Shown: positions 2,478-51,742, numbered from the stretch's first letter. The stretch is 64,000 nucleotides of DNA from an uncultured Thermodesulfobacteriota bacterium (GCA_964518865.1 CAZFIB010000013.1:2777-66776), one strand, 5' to 3'. Program-made: numbers and translations. Notes: generated by a model not told the origin, from the letters alone.

Positions 2478-4463
2478 ATGGCTGAAGAGAAAAAATCAAT
2501 GACTTCCGTTGCGTCCGAAGGGTACAAGCGCGTATTTGATATCCCCAAGGACCTGCAGGAAAAAGCGCACGTCAAGAGCATTGAACAGTACGAAGAAATG
2601 TACAAACGCTCCATCGAGGACCCGGAAGGTTTCTGGGGCGAGCAGGCCGAGCAGAATCTTGATTTCTTCAAGAAATGGGACAAGGTCCTGGACTATGAAT
2701 GGGGCGACAAGGTGCGCATCGAGTGGTTCAAGGGAGCCAAGCTGAATGTGTCCTGCAACTGCCTGGACCGCCACATCAAGACCGAGCGCAAAAACAAGGC
2801 TGCAATCATGTGGCAGGGCGAGCCGGTCGACGAGGCGCGCACCTATACCTATATCGAACTGTATTACGAGGTCAACAAGTTCGCCAACGTGCTGAAGAAA
2901 AAGGGCGTCAAAAAAGGCGACCGCGTATCCATCTACCTGCCCATGATTCCCGAGCTGCCGATCGCCATGCTGGCCTGCGCCCGTATCGGCGCAATCCACA
3001 GCATCGTATTCGGCGGTTTCAGCGCCGACGCTCTGCGCGACCGCATTCTTGACTGTGATGCCAGGGTGCTGATCACCAGCGATGCGAGCTACCGCTCGGG
3101 CAAGGTCATCCCCCTGAAGGGCAATGCCGACCAGGCCCTGAATGAATGCCCGAACGTCGCAACCACGATCGTCGTCAATCGCACCGGCACCGATGTTCCC
3201 ATGAAGGAGGGCCGCGATGTGTGGTGGCATGAGGAGATGAATGCCAAGGGGCTGCCTTCATACTGCGAGCCCGAACAGATGGACGCCGAGGACCCGCTGT
3301 TTATTCTCTATACATCCGGTTCCACCGGCAAGCCCAAGGGCGTGCTTCACACGACCGCCGGCTACCTGCTGTACACGAATGTAACGCTGAAGTATACCTT
3401 CGATCTGCAGGAAGAAGACACCTTCTGGTGCACGGCCGATATCGGCTGGGTAACCGGTCACAGCTACATTGTCTACGGCCCCCTGTCGAACGGCGCTGCA
3501 AGCGTTATGTTCGAGGGCGTGCCCAGCTATCCGGACTACTCCCGTTTCTGGCAGATAGTTGAAAAATACAAAATCAACCAGTTTTACACCGCACCGACCG
3601 CTATCCGCGCCATCAATGCTCAGGGCGACTCCTGGCTCGACGGCATCGACCTGTCAAGCCTGCGCATTCTCGGCACGGTCGGCGAGCCGATCAATCCCGA
3701 GGCATGGATGTGGTATTACAACAAAATCGGCGGCGGCAAATGCCCCATCGTCGACACCTACTGGCAGACCGAGACCGGCGGCTTCCTGATCACGCCGCTG
3801 CCCGGTGCGATGAAAATCAAGCCCGGCTCCGCCAATCGCCCCTTCTTCGGCATCAAGCCTGCGATTATCCGTGAAGACGGCTCCGAGGTGGATGTGAACG
3901 AAGGCGGTCACCTGACGGTCACCCAGCCCTGGCCGGGCATGATGCGTACGGTGTACGGCGATCATGACCGTTTCAAAGAGACCTATTTCAGCCAGTTCCC
4001 CGGCAAGTACTATACCGGTGACGGCGCCCGGATCGACGACGACGGCGACTTTATCCTGATGGGCCGCCTCGATGACGTTATCAACGTATCCGGTCACCGC
4101 ATGGGTACCGCCGAGGTTGAAAGCGCGCTTGTTGCGCATGAAAAGGTTGCAGAGGCAGCGGTTGTGGGTATGCCCCATGAGATCAAGGGGCAGGGCATCT
4201 ATGCATTCGTGACCCTGAACTCGGGAGTCGAGGGTACCGATGATCTGAAGAAGGTGCTGGTCAAGCACGTGCGCTCCGAGATCGGCCCCATCGCGACACC
4301 CGACAAAATCCAGTTTGCCGCGGGTCTTCCCAAAACACGCAGCGGCAAAATCATGCGCCGCATCCTGAAGAAGATAGCAGCAGGCGATACCGGAGAACTC
4401 GGTGATACGTCCACGCTGGCCGATCCTTCAGTTGTCGACGACCTGATTTCCGGCAAGCAGTAG
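2478..4463 (+). CDS. acs: Acetyl-CoA synthetase (AMP-forming).
   Basis: [57 protein letters not shown]... with a [14 protein letters not shown]-binding motif and a C-terminal GKIMRR. RBS AGGAGG at 2461-2466. The ORF track begins at 2430, but the ATG at 2478 has the RBS. Confidence 0.95.
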
Positions 4464-4497: not shown

Positions 4498-4538
4498 GCC
4501 TGCCGCCGGACCGGGTTCCGGCGGCAGGCTTTTTTTTG
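4498..4538 (+). terminator. Rho-independent terminator after acs.
   Basis: GCCTGCCGCCGGA-ccgggt-TCCGGCGGCAGGC followed by TTTTTTTT. Confidence 0.8.
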
Positions 4539-4625
4539 CGGCGGCAGAAGGCGGTGCGCACGGCGCGCCGTGCAGTCTCGCCCCTGTGCTTTCTAAACTC
4601 ACTTTAGAGCATGTTCACACCACTG

Positions 4626-4723
4626 CAGCCATTCTGTCATTTCGAAGGAGCACGGCGACTGAGAAATCTCACGCCCCTGAAGAGATTTCTCCCCTTCGGT
4701 CGAAATGACAAAAAAACAGCCGG
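4626..4723 (+). repeat. Repeat family A, copy A1 (~100-bp imperfect palindromic element).
   Basis: ...ccattCTGTCATTTCGAAGGAGcacggcgactGAGAAATCTCacgcccctgaaGAGATTTCTCcccttcggtcgaaatgacaaaaaaaCAGccgg. Near-identical copies occur at 10693-10792 and 51519-51620. The two ends are inverted repeats of each other. The inner stem is GAGAAATCTC/GAGATTTCTC. Confidence 0.8.
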
Positions 4724-4931
4724 CGACAGTAAAGAGAAAGGCACGCTGCTTCAGCTTTTCTTCTTCGCCCCCGTCTCCGCACCTGCACCTTAAACCCGTT
4801 GCTTTATCGCAGTATTTAAATTAGTATAGATTTTATTTAATCTTCGCTCCTGCTGTGCACGCCATGAGCGGGACGCATCGTGCCTGCGGGGCGGGGACAC
4901 GCACACCGTTTGGACAGGAGAGCACCGGGCG

Positions 4932-6998
4932 ATGAAATCGCGCAGCACGACCGTCAATATCTGCTTTGCGACTGCGGTATTAATTGCCGGTATCGGGGTG
5001 ATCGTTCTGGCGACCCAGCGTGCCATCGGACGAAACACCGCCGAAGCCTTCAACCGCCAGCAGCTGTTTCTGGTGCGGGAGACGGCCCGCGGCATCGAGC
5101 AATCCGTACAGGATATCACGGTACATTTGAAGAGTGCGGCGGAAATGTACCGCTCTTCGGGCCGAACGGAGACGCTGGAAATCATGTACCGCCACCGCAG
5201 CTCCATGGTGAGAGCGGTTTTTCTTTGCGGTGCCGGAGGCGGGGTGCCGTTTGTGTACCCCGGGGGCAGTCATGACGAAACAGCACTTGCGGAAAAAGTG
5301 ACGCCTGTCATTGCCGCGGCAACGGCTGCCGGACATGATGTGTGTATCAGCGATTTTATGACCTTCGGCAGCGGGAGTGAAGGTGTTTTTTCATTTGTCG
5401 TCGCAGTACCCGTTCAGGACGGCGGGGGACAGTGGCTGTGCTGCATTCCCGATTTTGCGGCAATGAAAAAAGAGTATGTGTACCCTATCAGAACCGGGGC
5501 CACCGGATATGCCTGGATGATCGACAGCACCGGTGTGCTGCTCGCCCATCCCAACACCGCCATGGAGGGTCGCAAAGCACTTGAGGTTCTCAGGGAGCTC
5601 TGGCCCGCCTACTCGGACTACAATCTCGAAATGATCATCAACCGAGAAATGACCCGGGGGGAGGAGGGCAGCGGCCGATATACCGGCTGGCACATCGGCG
5701 AGAAGAAGCTGACGAAAAAACTCATCGCCTACAGCCCGGTCCGCATCGAGCAGGTGCTGTGGTCGATCGGCGTGTCCGCACCGTACCGGGAGGTCATGGC
5801 ACCGCTCATGAAGAGCATCGCCGGCCCGCTGATTTTTATCGCCTGTTTTATCGTGGTCATTCTGGCGGGCGCGTGGCTGCTGATCGTGCAGGAGAGAAAA
5901 AAGAGCGGGGCTCTCCAGGAGCTGCGCTGGGGCCAGGAGGTGTTTGACGGTATTACCGACGGCATTTCAATTATCGACCGGGACTATCGCGTGCTGATGG
6001 TCAACCGGGCGGTGTCGCAGTGGCAGGGCAGGCCGCAGAATTATTTCAGGGGCAGGCGCTGTCATGAGGTTTTTCAGCAGCAGGATACTTTGTGTGTCGG
6101 ATGCCCGGCCAGGGAAACGTTCGAGACCGGGAAGCCGGCCCTGCGCGAGCGCGTGAGCACGACACTGGCAGGAAAGAAATACTATTTTCATCTGGCAGCC
6201 TTCCCCTTGAAGGATCCTGACGGTAACATCGTTCGCGTTGCCGAATGCGTGCGTGACGTGACCCGTGAGATGGAGCTGCGTCAGGAACTGCTGCAGCACG
6301 AGCGCAAGTCCGTAATCGTCAAGATGTCGGCACAGGTCGCACATGAAATCAGGAACCCGCTCGGTACGCTTACGCTCAATATCGACCTGCTCGAAGACGA
6401 GATCGACGGTTTCGGGATAACCGATACTGCCGAGGCAAAACAGCTCATCTCAAAAATAAAGTCCGAGATCGAGGGCCTGCACCGCGTTTTGCAGGAGTAC
6501 CTCGAATGCACGCGCTTTCCCACAATCAAGCCGGAGAAGCATGACGCGGGCGCCGTTATCGAAGACCTGCTCAACCTTATGGAGGAGGATCTGCGCAGAA
6601 AAAAAATAGTTTTCACAACAGGTTTCGAATACGATCTGCCCGCCGCCCGCATCGACCAGGACCAGATACGCCGGGCGTTCATCAACATTATCCAGAACGC
6701 GGTCGATGCAATGGGATCCGGCGGGGGCGCAATAGACGTGCGGACGCGTTCGATCGACGGATGGCTTGAAATCGTCTTCCAGGACAGCGGGCCCGGCATA
6801 CCCGCTGACAGAATCGACAAGATTTTCACTCCGTTTTTTACCACAAAGAGCGGGGGCACCGGCCTGGGGCTTTCCATTACGCAGCATATTGTCGAGGAGC
6901 ACAAAGGAACGATCACCTGCGAAAGCGCAGAAGGCCGGTACACGCGCTTCATTATGAAGCTGCCGGTCTGGCGTGACGAGGAGCAGGGGGAGGTGTGA
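4932..6998 (+). CDS. Sensor histidine kinase: TM - periplasmic dCache-like domain - TM - Cys-rich PAS - HisKA - HATPase_c.
   Basis: 688 aa. N-terminal TM ICFATAVLIAGIGVIVLA. Cache-like YAWMIDSTGVLLAHP. Second TM IAGPLIFIACFIVVILAGAWLLIV. PAS with CHEVFQQQDTLCVGCPARETFETGK. H-box VAHEIRNPLGTL. G-boxes DSGPGIP / GGTGLGLSI. Confidence 0.85.
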   Translation: MKSRSTTVNICFATAVLIAGIGVIVLATQRAIGRNTAEAFNRQQLFLVRETARGIEQSVQDITVHLKSAAEMYRSSGRTETLEIMYRHRSSMVRAVFLCGAGGGVPFVYPGGSHDETALAEKVTPVIAAATAAGHDVCISDFMTFGSGSEGVFSFVVAVPVQDGGGQWLCCIPDFAAMKKEYVYPIRTGATGYAWMIDSTGVLLAHPNTAMEGRKALEVLRELWPAYSDYNLEMIINREMTRGEEGSGRYTGWHIGEKKLTKKLIAYSPVRIEQVLWSIGVSAPYREVMAPLMKSIAGPLIFIACFIVVILAGAWLLIVQERKKSGALQELRWGQEVFDGITDGISIIDRDYRVLMVNRAVSQWQGRPQNYFRGRRCHEVFQQQDTLCVGCPARETFETGKPALRERVSTTLAGKKYYFHLAAFPLKDPDGNIVRVAECVRDVTREMELRQELLQHERKSVIVKMSAQVAHEIRNPLGTLTLNIDLLEDEIDGFGITDTAEAKQLISKIKSEIEGLHRVLQEYLECTRFPTIKPEKHDAGAVIEDLLNLMEEDLRRKKIVFTTGFEYDLPAARIDQDQIRRAFINIIQNAVDAMGSGGGAIDVRTRSIDGWLEIVFQDSGPGIPADRIDKIFTPFFTTKSGGTGLGLSITQHIVEEHKGTITCESAEGRYTRFIMKLPVWRDEEQGEV

Positions 6999-8377
6999 CA
7001 GGCGTGGAATATGCCGGTGACAGATCGGTGCTGGTTGTCGAGGATACGGCAGGTATCCGGGAAGCGCTGGTAAAAATATTGTCCAAAGAGAATTACGCTG
7101 TTTTTTCCGCGGCAGACGGACAGGAAGCCGTGACGCTTTTACAGCAGGAGGATATCGGCGTCGTGGTGACGGACTTGAAAATGCCCCGCATCGACGGCGT
7201 TGAGCTGCTGCGCATTGCAAAAACCATTTCGCCGGATATCGAGGTTATCCTGATTACCGGCCACGGCACGGTGGAGGTTGCGGTGGAGGTGATGAAGGAC
7301 GGCGCGTTCGACTTTATTCAAAAGCCCTTCAACAAGCTGACCGTTCTCAAAATCGTCAGGAATGCCCTGGAAAAGCGCTCGCTTGTGCGTGAAAACAGAA
7401 TGCTGCTCGAACGGCTGCAGGATGCCAGGGGAACCGACAGCGTTATCGGCAAAAGCGCGGCCATGCGGCGGGTCATGGACCTGGTCGCGCAGGTGGCACC
7501 GAGCTCGGCAAACATCCTGGTTACCGGTGAGAGCGGCGTCGGCAAGGAGGTCATCGCCAAAGCCCTGCACGATATGAGCCCGCGCCGCGAATGCAATTTC
7601 ATCAAGGTCAGCTGTGCGGCACTTCCCGAGACCCTGCTGGAGGCGGAACTGTTCGGCTATGAGAAAGGCGCATTTACCGGAGCGGTCAGCCGCCGGGAGG
7701 GCCGCTTCGAGCTTGCCCACGGAGGAACGCTTTTTCTGGATGAGGTCGGTGAAATCAAACCGGCCATGCAGGTCAAGCTTCTCCGGGTGCTGCAAAGCGG
7801 TGAGTTCGAGCGGCTGGGCGGCGGAAAAACCATAAAAGCCGATGTGCGTGTCATAGCCGCCACCAACGCCGCCCTCAAAGATCTTGTGGAGCGCAAGCGG
7901 TTTCGCGAAGACCTGTACTACCGGCTGAATGTCATCAATATCGAGCTGCCGCCGCTTGTCGAGCGCCGGGAGGACATCCCGCTTCTGGCCGACCACTTTC
8001 TTAATCGCTATATGAAAAAAAACGGCAAGAACATCGAGGGTGTTTCGCGGGAAACCATGGACATTCTGACACGATATCACTGGCCGGGAAATGTGCGTGA
8101 GCTCGAAAACACCATGGAACGTGCCGTGGTGCTGTCACGGGACAGAATCATTTCACCCGACGATCTGCCGTCGGATATCGTATCCTCAGCCGCGGCAGTC
8201 AGGGATGTTTCTGCGGGAGGGCGTGTGCTCAATATTCAGGTCGGTAAAACCCCGCTCAAGGAAATCGAGAAAAAGGTCATCGAGGAAACCCTCAGGCAGG
8301 CAAAGGGCAATAAAAACATCGCCGCAAAGATCCTCGGCGTTTCGGCGCGCACCCTGTATCGCCGCATTGAAGAATAA
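6995..8377 (+). CDS. Sigma-54-dependent response regulator (NtrC/AtoC family): REC - AAA+ sigma-54 activator - Fis-type HTH.
   Basis: REC domain with [28 protein letters not shown] Walker A. GAFTGA loop ([17 protein letters not shown]). C-terminal [24 protein letters not shown] start overlaps the kinase stop (GTGA). Confidence 0.85.
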
Positions 8378-8598
8378 CTAATTGAAATATCTTTATTAAT
8401 TTTAATTATTGCTCCTCGGTACCTCCAGATTTCACTTGACACTTTTTTTATCACCATGATATGTTTAGAACTTTATTACTGCTCGGCGGAAGACCATGGG
8501 CGTAAGCCCGCGGGTATCTACGGATTATGATTATTCATTCTTATTAAGATTTAGGGCCGCACGAAAAGACTCATAAAATTACAAAGCAGGGAGGTAAA

Positions 8599-9396
8599 AT
8601 GAACAGTATTGTATGTTTAAAACAGGTTCCTGACACAGAAGCACAGATTGTGGTGAAGCCCGACGGATCAGGGGTCAAAATGGACGGAATCAAGTTCGTT
8701 ATCAACCCCTACGATGAATTCGGCATCGAGGAAGCCCTGGTGAAAAAGGAACAGGCCGGTGCCGGCGAGGTGACCCTGGTGTGCATGGGTCCCGACAGGT
8801 GCGTCGAGTCGATCCGCACCGGACTTGCCATGGGTGCTGATAAGGCTGTTCACATCGATGATCCGGCCTGTGACGACAGCGATGCCATGGCAACCGCTGC
8901 GGTTCTGGCCGAGCAGATCAAGAAGATGGAATACGACCTTGTATTCTGCGGCAAGCAGGCAATCGACGACGACCAGGCGCAGGTCGGCGTTGCACTGGCC
9001 GAGCTGCTGGGCATTCCGCACGCATCGCTGGTGACAAAGGTCGAGGTCGCCGACGACAAGAAGAGCGTTACGGTCAATCGGCAGATCGTGGGCGGTGAAG
9101 AGGTGCTCGAAATGCCCATACCCTGCGTTATTACCGCTCAGAAAGGTCTGAACGAACCGCGCTATGCCTCGCTTCCCGGCATCATGAAGGCCAAGAAAAA
9201 ACCGCTGACGCCGGTGAAAACAGCCGATCTGGGCATTGATGCAGGCACGGTGGGTGCCGGCGGCTCCCGGACAAAAGCATCCAATTTCACCAATCCGCCT
9301 GCCAGAACCGCCGCTAAAATCATCGAGGGCGAGTCCCCCGAGGAAAAGGCCGCCAACCTTGCAAAAGCCCTGCGGGAAGAGGCAAAGGCAATCTAA
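8599..9396 (+). CDS. etfB: Electron transfer flavoprotein subunit beta.
   Basis: MNSIVCLKQVPDTEAQIVVKPDG...INPYDEFGIEEAL. RBS GGGAGG upstream. Confidence 0.9.
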   Translation: MNSIVCLKQVPDTEAQIVVKPDGSGVKMDGIKFVINPYDEFGIEEALVKKEQAGAGEVTLVCMGPDRCVESIRTGLAMGADKAVHIDDPACDDSDAMATAAVLAEQIKKMEYDLVFCGKQAIDDDQAQVGVALAELLGIPHASLVTKVEVADDKKSVTVNRQIVGGEEVLEMPIPCVITAQKGLNEPRYASLPGIMKAKKKPLTPVKTADLGIDAGTVGAGGSRTKASNFTNPPARTAAKIIEGESPEEKAANLAKALREEAKAI

Positions 9397-9452
9397 AGCC
9401 GTTACGTACATAAGAGCGAAACGATTCAGATCATATAAAGGAGAGAGTGACA

Positions 9453-10439
9453 ATGGGAAATATATGGGTTTTTGCCGAACAGGATCAGGGTAATCTGCGC
9501 AAGGTTACCTTTGAGATGCTGAGTGAAGCGCGAAAAATCGCAGATGCCAAAGGCGACAAGCTGTGCGCCGTTTGTCTCGGAAAAGACATCGCCGGTCTTG
9601 CCGACAAGTTCGCTCCCTACGGAGCGGACAAGGTCTACATGGTAGAGCACGAGCTGCTGGATCAGTACACGACCGATGCCTATGCCAAGGCACTGTGTGA
9701 CCTTATCATTAAGGAACAGCCCTCCATCGTGCTGTTCGGCGCAACCGTTCTGGGCAAGGACCTGGCGCCGAAAGTCGCAGCGCGCTGCAAAGCGGGCCTT
9801 GCCTCGGACTGCAGTGAGATCAAGCTCGACGGCGATAATTTTTGCATACGCCGTCCGATGTATGCCGGCAAGGCATATGCCGATGTTACCTATCAGAATA
9901 CCGACATCATGATGGCCTCGATCAGACCCAATGTGCTGATCGCTTCAGAGCCCGATGCGTCGAAGTCGGCCGAAGTGGAGAACGTCACCCCCGAAATCTC
10001 GGCAGACGATATCAAGGTAAAAGTGGCCGAGGTCATCAAGGGCGATGCCGGCAAGGTGGATCTTACCGAGGCCGAGATCATCGTTTCCGGCGGCCGCGGC
10101 ATGAAGGGCTCTGAAAACTACAAAATGCTCGAGGATCTGGCTGATGTGATCGGCGCAACGGTCGGCGCCTCGCGTGCGGCAGTCGATTCCGGCTGGCGGC
10201 CACAGTCGGACCAGGTGGGCCAGACCGGCAAGGTCGTATCACCCAACCTCTATATCGCCTGCGGTATCTCCGGCGCCATTCAGCACTACGCCGGCATGGG
10301 AACCTCCAAGGTCATTGTCGCCATCAACAAGGACGAAGAAGCCCCGATTCTCACCAAGAGCGATTATGCTGTCGTGGATGACCTGTTCAAGGTCGTGCCC
10401 GCGCTGACCGGAGAGATGAAAAAGCTGATGGCCGAATAA
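9453..10439 (+). CDS. etfA: Electron transfer flavoprotein subunit alpha.
   Basis: [15 protein letters not shown]... with a C-terminal FAD-binding region ([37 protein letters not shown]). RBS AAGGAGAGAG. The ATG at 9453 is preferred over the track start at 9447. Confidence 0.9.
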
Positions 10440-10466
10440 AAAACAGGCAGCGTTTCCTGACAAACA

Positions 10467-10503
10467 AAAAGCTCCCCTTTTGCACGGGGAGCTTTTTGTT
10501 TTG
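10467..10503 (+). terminator. Rho-independent terminator after etfA.
   Basis: AAAGCTCCCC-ttttgcac-GGGGAGCTTT followed by TTGTTTTG. Confidence 0.8.
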
Positions 10504-10692
10504 TGCGGTCACGCAACTTTGACGGTTCCGTAAAAAGTCCATCTGCTGCGTTGCGCGGCATCTTCAGTCATTGCGGCGTACAAACAAGTACGCCTCATTT
10601 CTTCAGATTTGCGCGCCTTGCATCTGAAGCTTTTTACAAAACCGCCCCGTTTCTTGCTTTTTACGACTTCATCAATTTTAAATGTCATAATC

Positions 10693-10792
10693 TACTATGG
10701 CCATTCTGTTACTTCGAAGGAGCAGGGCGACTGAGAAATATCACGCCCTGAAGAGATTTCTCCCTTCGGTCGAAATGACAAAAAACAGATGG
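10693..10792 (+). repeat. Repeat family A, copy A2.
   Basis: tactatggccattctgttacttcgaaggagcagggcgactgagaaatatcacgccctgaagagatttctcccttcggtcgaaatgacaaaaaacagatgg. It differs from A1 by point changes and 1-nt indels. Confidence 0.8.
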
Positions 10793-10892
10793 TTATAGAA
10801 AATAGAAAATTACTCTATGTAAAAAAGTTGATTGCAAATATAGCATTAAAATGTTATTTAATATTATTAAATAACAATAATATGTTATTTAT

Positions 10893-11026
10893 GGCATTTA
10901 TTGATAGAGTGCAGCCGTGCAGGAGCGGCCTCCGTCCGCGAAAAAAATTGCAGCTAAAGCAGCTCCCGCATTTTCGCACCACACGGCGGGCACCGAAAAA
11001 AGGCTGTAGAACAGAGTGAAGTGCAC
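10893..11026 (+). repeat. Repeat family B, copy B1 (~133-bp structured element).
   Basis: ggcatttattgatagagtgcagccgtgcaggagcGGCCTCCGTCCGCgaaaaaaattgcagctaaagcagctcccgcattttcgcaccacacggcgggcaccgaaaaaaggctgtagaacagagtgaagtgcac. About 80% identical to the copies at 45256-45388 and 51372-51500 (the latter in reverse orientation). Confidence 0.75.
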
Positions 11027-11076
11027 GGGACCATCAATTTTAAGATATATGCTGCTATAAAACGTACAGGGGGTTT

Positions 11077-12222
11077 ATGCTGTTTCGTCGGTTGCTCGAC
11101 CTTGAAAAACTGAAAAGTTCAGCATTTGTTTTCGGTCCCCGGATGACCGGTAAAACGACGTTGCTGCACAGGCTGGGCTCCGATGCGGCCTTCGATTTGC
11201 TTGACCCGGAACTGGAACTCGAATACCGGGCAAACCCGAAACTCTTCTGGGAGGTCGTTTCCGCTTTAGCCGAAAACTCACTGGTAGTGATTGATGAAAT
11301 ACAGAAAGTGCCGGCACTTTTGAACTATGTTCAAATGGGAATGGATCGCTTCAATCACAGGTTCATTCTTACCGGATCGAGTGCCAGGAAGCTCAAGCGG
11401 GGCGGGGCTAACCTGCTTGGCGGAAGAAGCCTCGACTTGAAACTTCACCCCTTGACGCACGAAGAGCTGGAAAATCATTTTTCCATCGACCGTGCATTAC
11501 TGTACGGGACGCTTCCGAAAATAGCCGCTCTGCTTGTCGATCAGGATGTCTCGCTCGCTAAAAAACATCTCAGAAGCTATGTGACAACGTATATCAAGGA
11601 GGAAGTTCAGGCTGAAGCGCTTACCCGGAACCTTGGCGCCTTCCAGCGGTTTTTGAACGTTGCCGGTCAAAGCAACGGGCAGATTGTTGAATTCTCCAAT
11701 ATTTCACGGGAATGCGCGGTTCCGGCAAGTACCGTCAAAGAGTATTACCAGATTCTGGAAGACACGCTGCTCGGCTTTTTTCTATGGCCGTTCGATCGCA
11801 ATGAGCGGAAGAAAGCGCGACCGAAATTTTATTTTTTTGACTGTGGTGTTGTTCGATCCATTCAAAACAGACTGGAAGATCCTCCGACGGCCCCTGAGAC
11901 GGGTTTTTTATTTGAAACCTGGTTTGTAACGGAAGTTATCCGTATACGGGATTATTATGAAAAAGACCATCAGATAGCCTTCTGGCGCAGCCGGAACCAT
12001 GAAATAGATATTATCATTTCAGGAGGGCACGGGCCGATACTGGCTATTGAGTGCAAGTCGGGAAAATCGGACGTTGCCGGTTCGACCTTCCATGCATTTA
12101 AAACCTCTTTCCCCGGAACGCCGTTACTCGTTGCTTCGCTTACTGATGACCGCCCCAGGAGAGCGGGCGGCGTCGATATCCTGCCCTGGCGACAGGTGCT
12201 CGAAACGTACCGTATGCTGTAA
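11077..12222 (+). CDS. AAA+ ATPase of the COG1373 type (AAA_14 plus a DUF4143-like C-terminal domain).
   Basis: 381 aa. Walker A GPRMTGKTTLL. Walker B LVVIDEIQKVP. The C-terminal region is typical of this orphan ATPase family. Confidence 0.75.
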   Translation: MLFRRLLDLEKLKSSAFVFGPRMTGKTTLLHRLGSDAAFDLLDPELELEYRANPKLFWEVVSALAENSLVVIDEIQKVPALLNYVQMGMDRFNHRFILTGSSARKLKRGGANLLGGRSLDLKLHPLTHEELENHFSIDRALLYGTLPKIAALLVDQDVSLAKKHLRSYVTTYIKEEVQAEALTRNLGAFQRFLNVAGQSNGQIVEFSNISRECAVPASTVKEYYQILEDTLLGFFLWPFDRNERKKARPKFYFFDCGVVRSIQNRLEDPPTAPETGFLFETWFVTEVIRIRDYYEKDHQIAFWRSRNHEIDIIISGGHGPILAIECKSGKSDVAGSTFHAFKTSFPGTPLLVASLTDDRPRRAGGVDILPWRQVLETYRML

Positions 12223-12352
12223 ATGTCTCCACCCGCCCCGCAGTATTGCATGTACCGGTATCCTGTAGCCGCAAACCGGATTCCGGAATCAAGAGGCTGT
12301 GTCGTAATGCATTCATATGCGATTTCGAGCAACAGCGGGAAACGGCAAGGTT

Positions 12353-32670: not shown

Positions 32671-32762
32671 GGAGAGATGGCCGAGCTGGCTGAAGGTGCA
32701 CGACTGGAAATCGTGTGTGCGTTAACAGCGTACCGAGGGTTCGAATCCCTCTCTCTCCGCCA
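32671..32762 (+). tRNA. tRNA-Ser (anticodon GGA).
   Basis: GGAGAGA-TG-GCCGAGCTGGCTGAAGGTG-CACGA-CTGGAAA-TCGTG-long variable arm-GAGGG-TTCGAAT-CCCTC-TCTCTCC-G-CCA. CCA is encoded. 92 nt. Confidence 0.9.
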
Positions 32763-32912
32763 TTTATATCCGGAAACCAGGAATGTAGCCGGATCCCAAG
32801 CAACAGGTGATTTGCGAACCCCGCCAGGTCCGGAAGGAAGCAACGGTAGTAAAGATCCTGTGTGTTTGGTGTATCCGGCTATTTTTCCTCTCTGCCCGGT
32901 CGTGCCGACGTC

Positions 32913-44275: not shown

Positions 44276-45249
44276 ATAGACTGGACAGCGTATTTGATAT
44301 CGTTGCGGACGAGATGAAGGTTGTTGAAAAAACACTGTTGGCGCATGTCGGAAGCGATATAGACCAAATTAACAGTATCTGCTCGTATGTTTTCAAAAGC
44401 GGGGGCAAGCGGCTGCGGCCGCTGATACTGCTGCTTGCGGCACGCTGCTGCGGGTATCAGGGCGACAGCCATATTACCGTTGCCTGCGTGATGGAGTATA
44501 TTCATACGGCTACACTTCTGCATGACGATGTAATCGACCATGCCGAGATACGACGGGGCAATTCTTCGGCAAACATACTCTGGGGCAACCAGTCGACGAT
44601 ACTGAGCGGTGACTTTCTGTTTGCCAAGGCCTTTTCGCTTGCTGTCTCGATCCATGATATCGAAGTACTCGATATCATCGCCGAGACCTGCAGCCGTCTT
44701 GCAGAGGCCGAAATGATGCAGGTTATCAAAGCAGGGGACCCCCGAATAACGGAACAGGAGTACTTTACAATCATTACCGATAAAACGGCATCCCTTTTTT
44801 CCGCCTGCACACGCATCGGCGGAATTCTCGGCCGGGTGTCCGGGGAGAAAGTAAAAGCCGTAGAGCGCTACGGCCACCACTTCGGCATAGCTTTTCAGAT
44901 TATGGATGATGTGCTTGACTATTCCGCCCGCGAAGAGGACCTCGGCAAGACTATCGGCAAAGACCTGCAGGAAGGCAGCATAACCCTTCCCTTTATTGCC
45001 GCCCTGGAACGAAGCTCACCGCAGGACCGTGATTGTCTGCTCAATGCCTTCGGCCCGGGCAGCGTATCACCGGAAAACCTTTCGAGAATTATCAAAATTG
45101 TCGAGCACTACAAGGGCAGCGATTATGCTGTAGCGCGTGCGCGCGACCATGTGCAGCATGCCATCGATGCGCTTGAGGCTTTTAAAGATCGTGATGCGGT
45201 ACAGCCGCTCATCGATCTGGCGAAGTACGTCGTTGAGCGCACATCATGA
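44272..45249 (+). CDS. ispB: Polyprenyl diphosphate synthase (IspB-like).
   Basis: FARM LLHDDVIDHAEIRRG and second DD motif FQIMDDVLD. Confidence 0.85.
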   Translation: MNRLDSVFDIVADEMKVVEKTLLAHVGSDIDQINSICSYVFKSGGKRLRPLILLLAARCCGYQGDSHITVACVMEYIHTATLLHDDVIDHAEIRRGNSSANILWGNQSTILSGDFLFAKAFSLAVSIHDIEVLDIIAETCSRLAEAEMMQVIKAGDPRITEQEYFTIITDKTASLFSACTRIGGILGRVSGEKVKAVERYGHHFGIAFQIMDDVLDYSAREEDLGKTIGKDLQEGSITLPFIAALERSSPQDRDCLLNAFGPGSVSPENLSRIIKIVEHYKGSDYAVARARDHVQHAIDALEAFKDRDAVQPLIDLAKYVVERTS

Positions 45250-45255
45250 TGCTGT

Positions 45256-45388
45256 GGCATGTATCAAAATAATGCAGCCGGGCAGGAGCGGCCTCCGGCC
45301 GCAAAAAGAATCGCAGCCAACGCAGCTCCTGCATTTTCGCACAACCTGCGGGCACCGGACTAAGGCTATGGAATAGGGTGAAATGCAC
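45256..45388 (+). repeat. Repeat family B, copy B2.
   Basis: ggcatgtatcaaaataatgcagccgggcaggagcGGCCTCCGGCCGCaaaaagaatcgcagccaacgcagctcctgcattttcgcacaacctgcgggcaccggactaaggctatggaatagggtgaaatgcac. It abuts the stop of the minus-strand gene at 45388. Confidence 0.75.
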
Positions 45389-51224: not shown

Positions 51225-51371
51225 GTCGAAAAAATCATAAATGTGTGTCCGGCGAAGGCGGGAATCCAGTGCTTTCGTTTTCGACTGACTTCTCATCCCG
51301 CCGGGGCTGGATTCGAAATGACAGTACGGATCGGTGCGCACGGCACACCCTGCGGAAGCTTTTCCGCATTA

Positions 51372-51500
51372 GTGCACTTTACACTATTCCATAGCCTTTT
51401 TCCGGCGCCCGCCTGGTGGTGCGAAGCCGGAGCCTCTTTATCTGCGATTTATTTTCGCGGCCGGAGGCCGCTACCCGGCTTCATTGTTTTGGTACATGCC
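51372..51500 (-). repeat. Repeat family B, copy B3 (reverse orientation).
   Basis: Its revcomp reads ggcatgtaccaaaacaatgaagccgggtagcGGCCTCCGGCCGCgaaaataaatcgcagataaagaggctccggcttcgcaccaccaggcgggcgccggaaaaaggctatggaatagtgtaaagtgcac. Confidence 0.75.
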
Positions 51501-51518
51501 GTAGAGCCATTTTTACAC

Positions 51519-51620
51519 TACTATGGCCGTTCTGCCATTGCGAAGAAGCACAGCGACTGAGAAATCTCACGCCCCTGAGGAGATTTCTCCCTTCAATCGA
51601 AATGACAAAAAAAAGATGGC
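51519..51620 (+). repeat. Repeat family A, copy A3.
   Basis: ctactatggccgttctgccattgcgaagaagcacagcgactgagaaatctcacgcccctgaggagatttctcccttcaatcgaaatgacaaaaaaaagatggc. Confidence 0.8.
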
Positions 51621-51742
51621 TGCAAACAAGAGGAAACTGCTTCAGACGGCAGCAGTTCTATTCACCATAGAAGTAATAACAGGGAATATGGTATAATCAT
51701 TTGTGTTTTATATGCTATACACCAATGCGTGTGGAGGGGACG

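Follow-up and report, generated by a model that had tools for sequence, protein, structure and literature searches.

The repeat present in three intergenic copies in the window, the 64,000-nucleotide stretch of DNA analysed here, is a TGTC-tagged REP heterodimer of a G·A/GNA variant located in gaps between a terminator and a promoter. Each copy is probably a REP dimer, a doublet resembling BIMEs and REPINs in which two inverted, non-identical units of the CGTC/TGTC superfamily are joined into a non-autonomous element that is now decaying. The repeats are real and exceed chance expectation, yet they belong to a described class: they are repeats of an ordinary type, if slightly unusual in structure, and not a new RNA gene.

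Extent and anatomy of the three copies

The three copies lie on the + strand in the same orientation and are preceded by the genes for acetyl-CoA synthetase, EtfA and a GH39-like protein (copies 1, 2 and 3, respectively), exactly as the preliminary description had placed them. The length of about 100 bp originally assigned to the element is too short, as homology runs past the claimed ends in all three cases. Copy 1 spans positions 4605-4754 (local alignment with copy 3; nhmmer 8e-45), copy 2 approximately 10685-10813 (alignments; nhmmer 7e-41) and copy 3 51502-51645 (alignment with copy 1; nhmmer 4e-46), all on the + strand. A profile HMM built from the three copies recovers just those three in the window (nhmmer), and the central 19-nt block GCGACTGAGAAATNTCACG occurs three times against 0.05 occurrences expected by chance. 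This stretch of the host genome holds three dimers per 64 kb. The arms are mutual inverted repeats, as checked in copy 1, and the copies differ by the 1-nt indels already described as well as by substitutions. The central stem, reported as perfect, is exact in copies 1 and 3, where it reads GAGAAATCTC-N11-GAGATTTCTC, whereas copy 2 presents GAGAAATATC with N10 and one mismatch. The element was rightly regarded as non-coding. It generates spurious ORFs, such as those of 82 aa and 84 aa over copies 2 and 3, and it may break assemblies, as the start of a Logan contig inside copy 1 suggests. That contig (L006, from SRR7048224) corresponds to window positions 4664-10548 in an independent assembly of the same organism and begins in the middle of copy 1; its start could mark a point where a repeat broke the assembly, and would fit an element that is repeated in that genome.

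Each copy is composed of the REP dimer core and lineage-specific flanks, the alignments of the copies defining around the core some 30-45 nt of flank conserved in this genome. The repeated segment is longer than a REP dimer and, therefore, a larger composite may have been duplicated by some other route. Just upstream of copy 3, at 51243-51326, there is a fourth, degenerate REP-like dimer (TGTGTCCGGCGAAGGCGGGAATCCAG...CTGGATTCGAAATGACAG), the left half of which resembles a CGTC-1-type unit with a deletion while the right half is without the upper stem-loop. A second, unrelated direct repeat of 135 nt, with predicted internal hairpins and a 91-nt core that is 84% identical, is located at 10892-11026 and 45255-45388; one site immediately precedes the DUF4143 ATPase gene, and the other is located past a gene ending at 45249.

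The core of each copy is formed by two inverted REP units whose TGTC tags face outward. The general unit, of about 30 nt, starts with Y-TGTC and continues with a base stem of 5 bp that opens with A,T, a tandem G·A mismatch (GA opposite GA) and a 2-bp upper stem closed by a GNA triloop, followed by a CTY tail. The short unit of the dimer, on the - strand, reads TGTC-ATTTC-GA-CC[GAA(G)]GG-GA-GAAAT-CTC and comprises nine stem positions, of which 6-7 form the tandem G·A mismatch and seven are Watson-Crick pairs. The long unit, on the + strand, reads TGTC-ATTTC-GA-AG-GA-GC[loop]GC-GA-CT-GA-GAAAT-CTC; compared with the general unit it has one additional layer of 2 bp plus G·A, giving 13 stem positions that include two tandem G·A mismatches. 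A CTC tail follows GAGAAAT in every unit of the window, and the A,T stem start is present as ATTTC/GAAAT in all intact window units. All three copies are heterodimers of a long and a short unit in which CTC and GAG border a conserved spacer of 10-11 nt, and their 3' tags GACA (TGTC on the - strand) are positioned at 4707-4710, 10777-10780 and 51604-51607.

In copy 1 the long unit occupies positions 4635-4670 of the + strand, with the tag TGTC at 4635-4638, the hairpin ATTTC-GA-AG-GA-GC[ACG]GC-GA-CT-GA-GAAAT and the tail CTC. It is predicted to adopt the fold (((((..((..((...))..))..))))) with -6.6 kcal/mol on its own strand versus -1.6 kcal/mol for the complement. The 11-nt spacer ACGCCCCTGAA (4671-4681) separates it from the short unit and is flanked by the mutually complementary tails CTC and GAG. 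The short unit of copy 1 (4682-4710, - strand), TGTC-ATTTC-GA-CC[GAAG]GG-GA-GAAAT-CTC, has a loop of 4 nt, GAAG, and folds with -6.6 kcal/mol on the - strand versus -2.4 kcal/mol on the + strand. The long unit of copy 2 (10707-10742, + strand) is degenerate, its tag being mutated to TGTT and its base stem, ACTTC/GAAAT, containing one mismatch. The short unit of the same copy, TGTCATTTCGACCGAAGGGAGAAATCTC (10753-10780, - strand), is intact and shares an identical 24-nt core with positions 8636-8659 of the viral contig L014. Similarly, the long unit of copy 3 (51533-51568, + strand) is degenerate, with the tag mutated to TGCC and one mismatch in the base stem ATTGC/GAAAT. In the short unit of copy 3 (51580-51607, - strand) the upper stem CC/GG has changed to TT/GG, where two T·G wobbles are kept on the - strand only. 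The uncompensated stem and tag mutations carried by the 5' units of copies 2 and 3 suggest that the copies are now decaying.

The same pairing of units is observed outside the window. A scan of viral contigs with the outer arms, GTCATTTCGA-N50-80-TCGAAATGAC, identified nine loci, and eight of the nine display the nested layout TGTCATTTCGA-variable-GAGAAATC-variable centre-GATTTCTC-variable-TCGAAATGACA. The recurrence of this layout defines the element as a pair of inverted units.

Hairpin conservation and strand preference

Covariation was evaluated in 100 distinct units from viral contigs that match TGTCATNNCGANNGNANNGAGNNATC, a pattern in which both stem segments are left free. The variable NN/NN segment of the base stem is fully Watson-Crick in 95 of the 100 units and is represented by five pair types (TC/GA 35, TT/AA 29, CC/GG 24, CT/AG 4 and GT/AC 3). 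The upper NN/NN segment, also with five types, is Watson-Crick in 85 units, and 7 more pair when a wobble is accepted. The maxima reached in 10,000 partner shuffles were 48 for the base stem and 46 for the upper stem. The observed complementarity is far above these values and, therefore, the unit hairpin is the selected structure. The unit hairpin is strongly conserved by compensatory change. The loops of the 100 units follow GNA (GAA 43, GCA 34, GGA 15, GTA 8). The A,T stem start is present in all recovered viral units, but AT was fixed in the search pattern and is hence not independent evidence. The tag of related units is mostly TGTC and in some cases CGTC, and the base following ATC is T in 77% of 98 related units.

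The folds predicted by ViennaRNA are exactly the proposed unit hairpins. The GA strand, which is the one that carries the tag first, is more stable than its complement in 29/33 units with RNA parameters and in 32/33 with DNA parameters. With the tag-first strand being the stabler, the optimal fold of the long unit is on the + strand and that of the short unit on the - strand. The two unit hairpins of a dimer are thus best formed on opposite strands, which argues for a repeat that operates at the DNA level rather than for a single RNA.

The preliminary description had proposed that the whole element folds into one long bulged hairpin. Copy 1 does fold in this manner (-36.3 kcal/mol, z -3.3), but copy 2 is branched, with an outer stem (z -6.1), and the fold of copy 3 is weak (z -1.9). 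The long hairpin is not retained as a conserved structure either, since RNAalifold on the three copies returns a penalising covariation term of +2.22 and counts a single compensatory pair and 9 that are broken in one copy. It is extremely unlikely that this long hairpin is the functional fold of a structured small RNA, or of a cis-regulatory leader, produced from the + strand. The folds of copies 1 and 2 are indeed significantly stabler than those of shuffled sequences, the outer flanking stem includes on the + strand one compensatory pair as well as G·U pairs, and the three copies are oriented like the neighbouring genes. However, the copy 3 fold is not significant, the covariation term is positive, and the hairpins that are conserved reside on opposite strands. 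In addition, neither the gathering threshold nor a limit of E <= 10 yielded a match in Rfam. The earlier suggestion of a stable structured sRNA is also not supported by the location of the copies, which lie past terminator-like hairpins and, for copies 1 and 3, upstream of the promoter of the next gene, conserved in the case of copy 1; the genes downstream, which encode a PAS/dCache histidine kinase, a DUF4143 ATPase and an unknown 894-aa protein, are functionally unrelated to one another, and no copy is present in about 110 kb from related genomes. A riboswitch or leader serving the downstream gene was rejected on the same two grounds, unrelated downstream genes and a position upstream of the promoter. 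A UUCG-type tetraloop in CCUUCGG was likewise rejected, as it is not conserved in copy 3.

Genomic setting, distribution and proposed spread of the units

The window is ordinary chromosome of an uncultured Desulfobacterota-like organism. Its LeuS has its best named matches in MAGs (71-74% identity), and cultured Desulfuromonadia reach 64-65%. A long-arm tRNA of 89 nt (32671-32759) is followed, 28 nt on, by a small SRP RNA (32787-32883; Rfam, 74.8 bits). Each copy of the REP dimer is placed between same-direction genes, 140-295 nt past the stop codon of the upstream one, with a terminator-like hairpin in between (4500-4537, 10575-10594 and 51464-51482 for copies 1, 2 and 3, respectively). Copy 1 is upstream of the promoter TTGCTT-N17-TAGTAT at 4799-4827, which is conserved at 3412-3440 of the related contig L016. 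This promoter is of sigma-70 type and heads the cluster of histidine kinase, sigma-54 regulator and etfBA in both genomes. Copy 3 is upstream of the extended -10 element TGgTATAAT at 51689-51697. On the + strand the element runs into a stretch of A residues (A-run), and on the - strand a T-run comes before it. The presence of an A-run rather than a T-run after the element means that it is not an intrinsic terminator, a candidate that was rejected also because terminator scans did not call the element. The ATGACA sequence at the 3' tag was considered as a -35 box and discarded; it is promoter-like in copy 2 only (9/12) and is not conserved in copies 1 and 3.

The copies lie downstream of an ORF and between same-direction genes, the typical position of REPs according to the available text of PMC3733652, and their hairpins are stable. 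Together with a phage lineage in which 66/66 units point one way per contig, suggesting a strand-specific role, these properties would fit an element used by its host, as reported for other REPs, either as a 3' stabiliser or backup terminator on read-through transcripts or as binding sites for nucleoid or topology proteins. Such use is nevertheless unlikely as the primary explanation, because the copies are situated beyond a separate terminator-like hairpin, the A-run on the + strand and the terminator scans speak against termination, decay is apparent in the 5' units of copies 2 and 3, close relatives do without the element at four syntenic loci and in about 110 kb of sequence and, across the other loci, units show no orientation bias relative to genes (44 vs 37). 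Any effect at the level of the host, such as an influence on read-through RNA stability or protein binding, would be secondary.

The gene order acs-HK-RR-etfB-etfA is retained in four related lineages, known from MAGs or assemblies, that do not carry the element; they have histidine kinases 58-68% identical to that of the window and acs-HK spacers of 260-283 nt versus 469 nt in the window. About 110 kb of sequence from the nearest relatives contained no unit and no profile match. Of the two related phages L014 and L031, only one has a REP-dimer array in a certain intergenic region. The distribution of the units is lineage-specific, and empty orthologous sites at 58-68% protein identity point to mobility. 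Alignment of filled and empty sites did not define the exact insertion ends, as the divergence of the intergenic DNA is too great. Between etfA and the PHP-domain gene, the window (10440-12350) contains about 1.9 kb of extra DNA relative to positions 9644-9757 of L016; this DNA, which may be an inserted segment, holds copy 2, an AT-rich stretch, the 135-nt repeat and the DUF4143/AAA_14 ATPase gene (11077-12222).

Units of the same type were recovered from other genomes. A contig scan with the 19-nt central block gave five matches, of which three are due to chance and two are half-elements in one Flavobacteriaceae MAG (binchicken_co31_337). These correspond to the 41-nt long unit plus tail TGTCATTTCGAAGGAGCGGAGCGACTGAGAAATCTCACG, found at 6885-6925 of L001 and 3575-3613 of L004. 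The Flavobacteriaceae unit is nearly identical to the long unit of the window, has no short partner there and belongs to a host of an apparently different phylum. A metagenome scan with AGCNNNGCGACTGAGAAATNTCACG and a viral scan for TGTCATTTCGAAGGAGC both gave 0 matches. The heterodimer of a short and a long unit recurs in contigs L041, L026 and L012, and units are known as singletons, as inverted dimers of both types, as head-to-tail arrays and as tandem partial arrays.

Four IMG/VR phage contigs (L029, L030, L034 and L040) carry 4-29 GTC-tagged units each, belonging to many different stem families. On these contigs the GA-type units share arrays with canonical-looking CGTC-type units, such as GTCATTCCTGCGCAGGCAGGAAT and GTCATCCTGAACTTGTTTCAGGAT; they are the contigs with the uniform orientation described above, and in L029 and L034 the tag-first strand is antisense to terminase and tail genes. 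The Mu-like phage contig L013, which encodes a MuA-like transposase, Gam and an amidase, contains at least seven REP dimers between 4245 and 11016, and the base stems ATTTC/GAAAT and ATTCC/GGAAT are mixed there within single dimers. Tandem arrays of half-units, consisting of the tag and the 5' stem half with a period of 24-30 nt, are present at 6916-6990 of L001, 5144-5220 of L009, 4086-4180 of L014 and approximately 12590-12790 of L031. In L031, solo TGTCA remnants are also found between repeated GCTAATTTTT spacers. The half-unit arrays and the solo remnants suggest hairpin-driven slippage or excision footprints.

By analogy with the GTAG-REP/RAYT pair and with IS200/IS605 ends, the units would act as single-strand hairpins and would spread as non-autonomous elements through an enzyme acting in trans that recognises the tag and the hairpin. 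The dimers of the window may then have landed in the gap separating the upstream terminator from the next promoter, or may have persisted nowhere but in this harmless interval. Inspection of the surroundings of the units by Pfam revealed no candidate for such an enzyme. Neither a Y1 nor another transposase family, nor a RAYT, is among the 25 most frequently matched of the 76 Pfam families with matches in the window; RAYTs are equally absent beside the units at other loci, and no transposase was found among 90 ORFs adjoining units. No Y1/HUH or other candidate mobilising enzyme was detected in the Flavobacteriaceae loci L001 and L004 or in the REP-rich phages L029 and L034. An association of the REPtron kind was rejected, as neither the Mu-like phage with at least seven dimers nor the neighbours of the window copies provide a Y1/HUH or other candidate enzyme. 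No later study addressing the mobilisation of CGTC REPs was found in the literature searched.

A classical MITE of the Correia or ERIC type, that is, a deletion derivative of an IS mobilised by a DDE transposase through terminal inverted repeats, would share with the element a size of about 100-150 bp, inverted-repeat arms, several copies and an intergenic location. It is very unlikely to explain the copies. No target-site duplication borders the homologous segments (4605/4754 and 51502/51645), whose flanks the preliminary description had singled out for inspection, and their extreme ends do not form inverted repeats. Moreover, the arms are tagged REP hairpins that also exist as singletons, in the opposite dimer type and in head-to-tail arrays, and no transposase is nearby, within the limits of the Pfam matches given above for the window and the 90 adjoining ORFs. 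E. coli genomes are expected to carry ERIC and REP sequences, but blastn with copy 1 gave no match in 5,426 of them and none in phage records, while plasmids yielded one marginal match (E 0.4). The arm sequences returned primer coincidences only from the full text of the literature. Of the earlier classification, the description as a dispersed, non-coding, palindromic intergenic repeat similar to REPs, BIMEs and MITEs stands, whereas an ERIC or Correia identity is not borne out.

Beyond the assignment of the window copies to decaying REP dimers, a tentative and rather doubtful proposal is that the TGTC units with G·A mismatches and GNA triloops form a distinct class of single-stranded DNA hairpin element, spread across phyla, partly on phages, by an undiscovered enzyme. 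The observations that prompt it are the 41-nt long unit shared by the window and the Flavobacteriaceae MAG and the dozens of units on phage contigs. If it were true, the strand-uniform arrays and the solo TGTCA remnants would be traces of the cleavage and joining chemistry.

For annotation, the assignment to REP dimers replaces a candidate novel sRNA or MITE by a recognisable repeat class. The three copies of the window are decaying passengers of little individual consequence, and the residual interest resides in the mobilising mechanism and in the abundance of the units on phage contigs. CGTC/TGTC REPs are widespread, yet they are without an assigned transposase or function. The signature Y-TGTC-AT-NN-C-GA-NN[GNA]NN-GA-G-NN-AT-CTY, which rests on clean covariation, strand asymmetry and abundance on phage contigs, is usable in phylogenetic profiling for the missing enzyme.

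Comparison with known repeat systems

REP sequences of the GTAG type, with their BIME and REPIN assemblies and their RAYT (TnpA-REP) transposases, are short tagged hairpins, an inverted pair of which makes a doublet of about 100 nt that folds as one or two hairpins. Their copies are dispersed and intergenic, and the hairpin evolves by compensatory change. The element described here has the same tagged hairpin unit, inverted doublet of about 100 nt, intergenic dispersal and compensatory change, and is distinguished by its tag, which is TGTC and not GT[AG]G. ERIC/IRU and Correia elements are similar in size class, in forming an imperfect palindrome and in their multi-copy spread between genes. 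In contrast to them, the present element is built of two autonomous hairpin units of REP type and not of terminal inverted repeats derived from an IS.

The ends of IS200/IS605 elements consist of a small imperfect subterminal hairpin and an adjacent tetranucleotide that are read in single-stranded DNA, according to the available text of PMC6006769. The units described here resemble these ends in combining a hairpin with an adjacent tetranucleotide and in the strand asymmetry of hairpin stability. Unlike IS200/IS605 elements, they have no tnpA or tnpB between or beside the hairpins, and they occur as singletons, dimers and arrays.

The closest relatives are the CGTC-tagged REPs described by Di Nocera, De Gregorio & Rocco (2013, BMC Genomics 14:522; PMC3733652), a superfamily which, in the available text, includes Neisseria dRS3 and Rickettsia RPE-4 and RPE-6. 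The family that the preliminary description did not recognise can thus be placed, as a dimer of TGTC-tagged REP units, in the superfamily set out in that text. Its members are defined there by an unpaired (C/T)GTC (or CCTC) tag at one foot of the hairpin and a 3-nt tail at the other, with a continuous stem of 8-9 bp in which positions 1 and 2 are complementary A,T and with loops of 4-5 nt. According to the same text, the units mostly form one type of inverted dimer (HH), often as heterodimers with a conserved spacer whose ends are often complementary; the many dispersed copies are located mainly between same-direction or convergent ORFs, and no dedicated transposase is reported for CGTC-type REPs. 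The tags-outward arrangement found here would correspond to the HH type, judging from the dimer peptides in the supplement of PMC3733652. The REP-encoded peptide VIPAKAGI given in that source would back-translate to a sequence like GTCATTCCCGCGAAGGCGGGAATC, the layout of which would be that of the short unit.

Against these descriptions, the element shares with CGTC/TGTC REPs the tag, the A,T stem start, the 3-nt tail, tags-outward heterodimers and the conserved spacer, as well as intergenic sites between same-direction genes and the absence of an associated transposase. Several features set it apart. Compared with the units as the text of PMC3733652 describes them, those found here combine a base stem of 5 bp with one or two tandem G·A mismatches and, in most cases, a GNA triloop, and they end in a CTY tail, whereas CCA is the tail of the published CGTC REPs. 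The host differs from those of the published CGTC families in being an uncultured Desulfobacterota-like MAG, with similar units abundant on phage contigs, and the dimer bears in this genome the extra conserved flank of about 30-45 nt. The G·A mismatches and the mostly 3-nt loops, where the available text describes perfect stems, therefore identify the units as a variant of the described superfamily.
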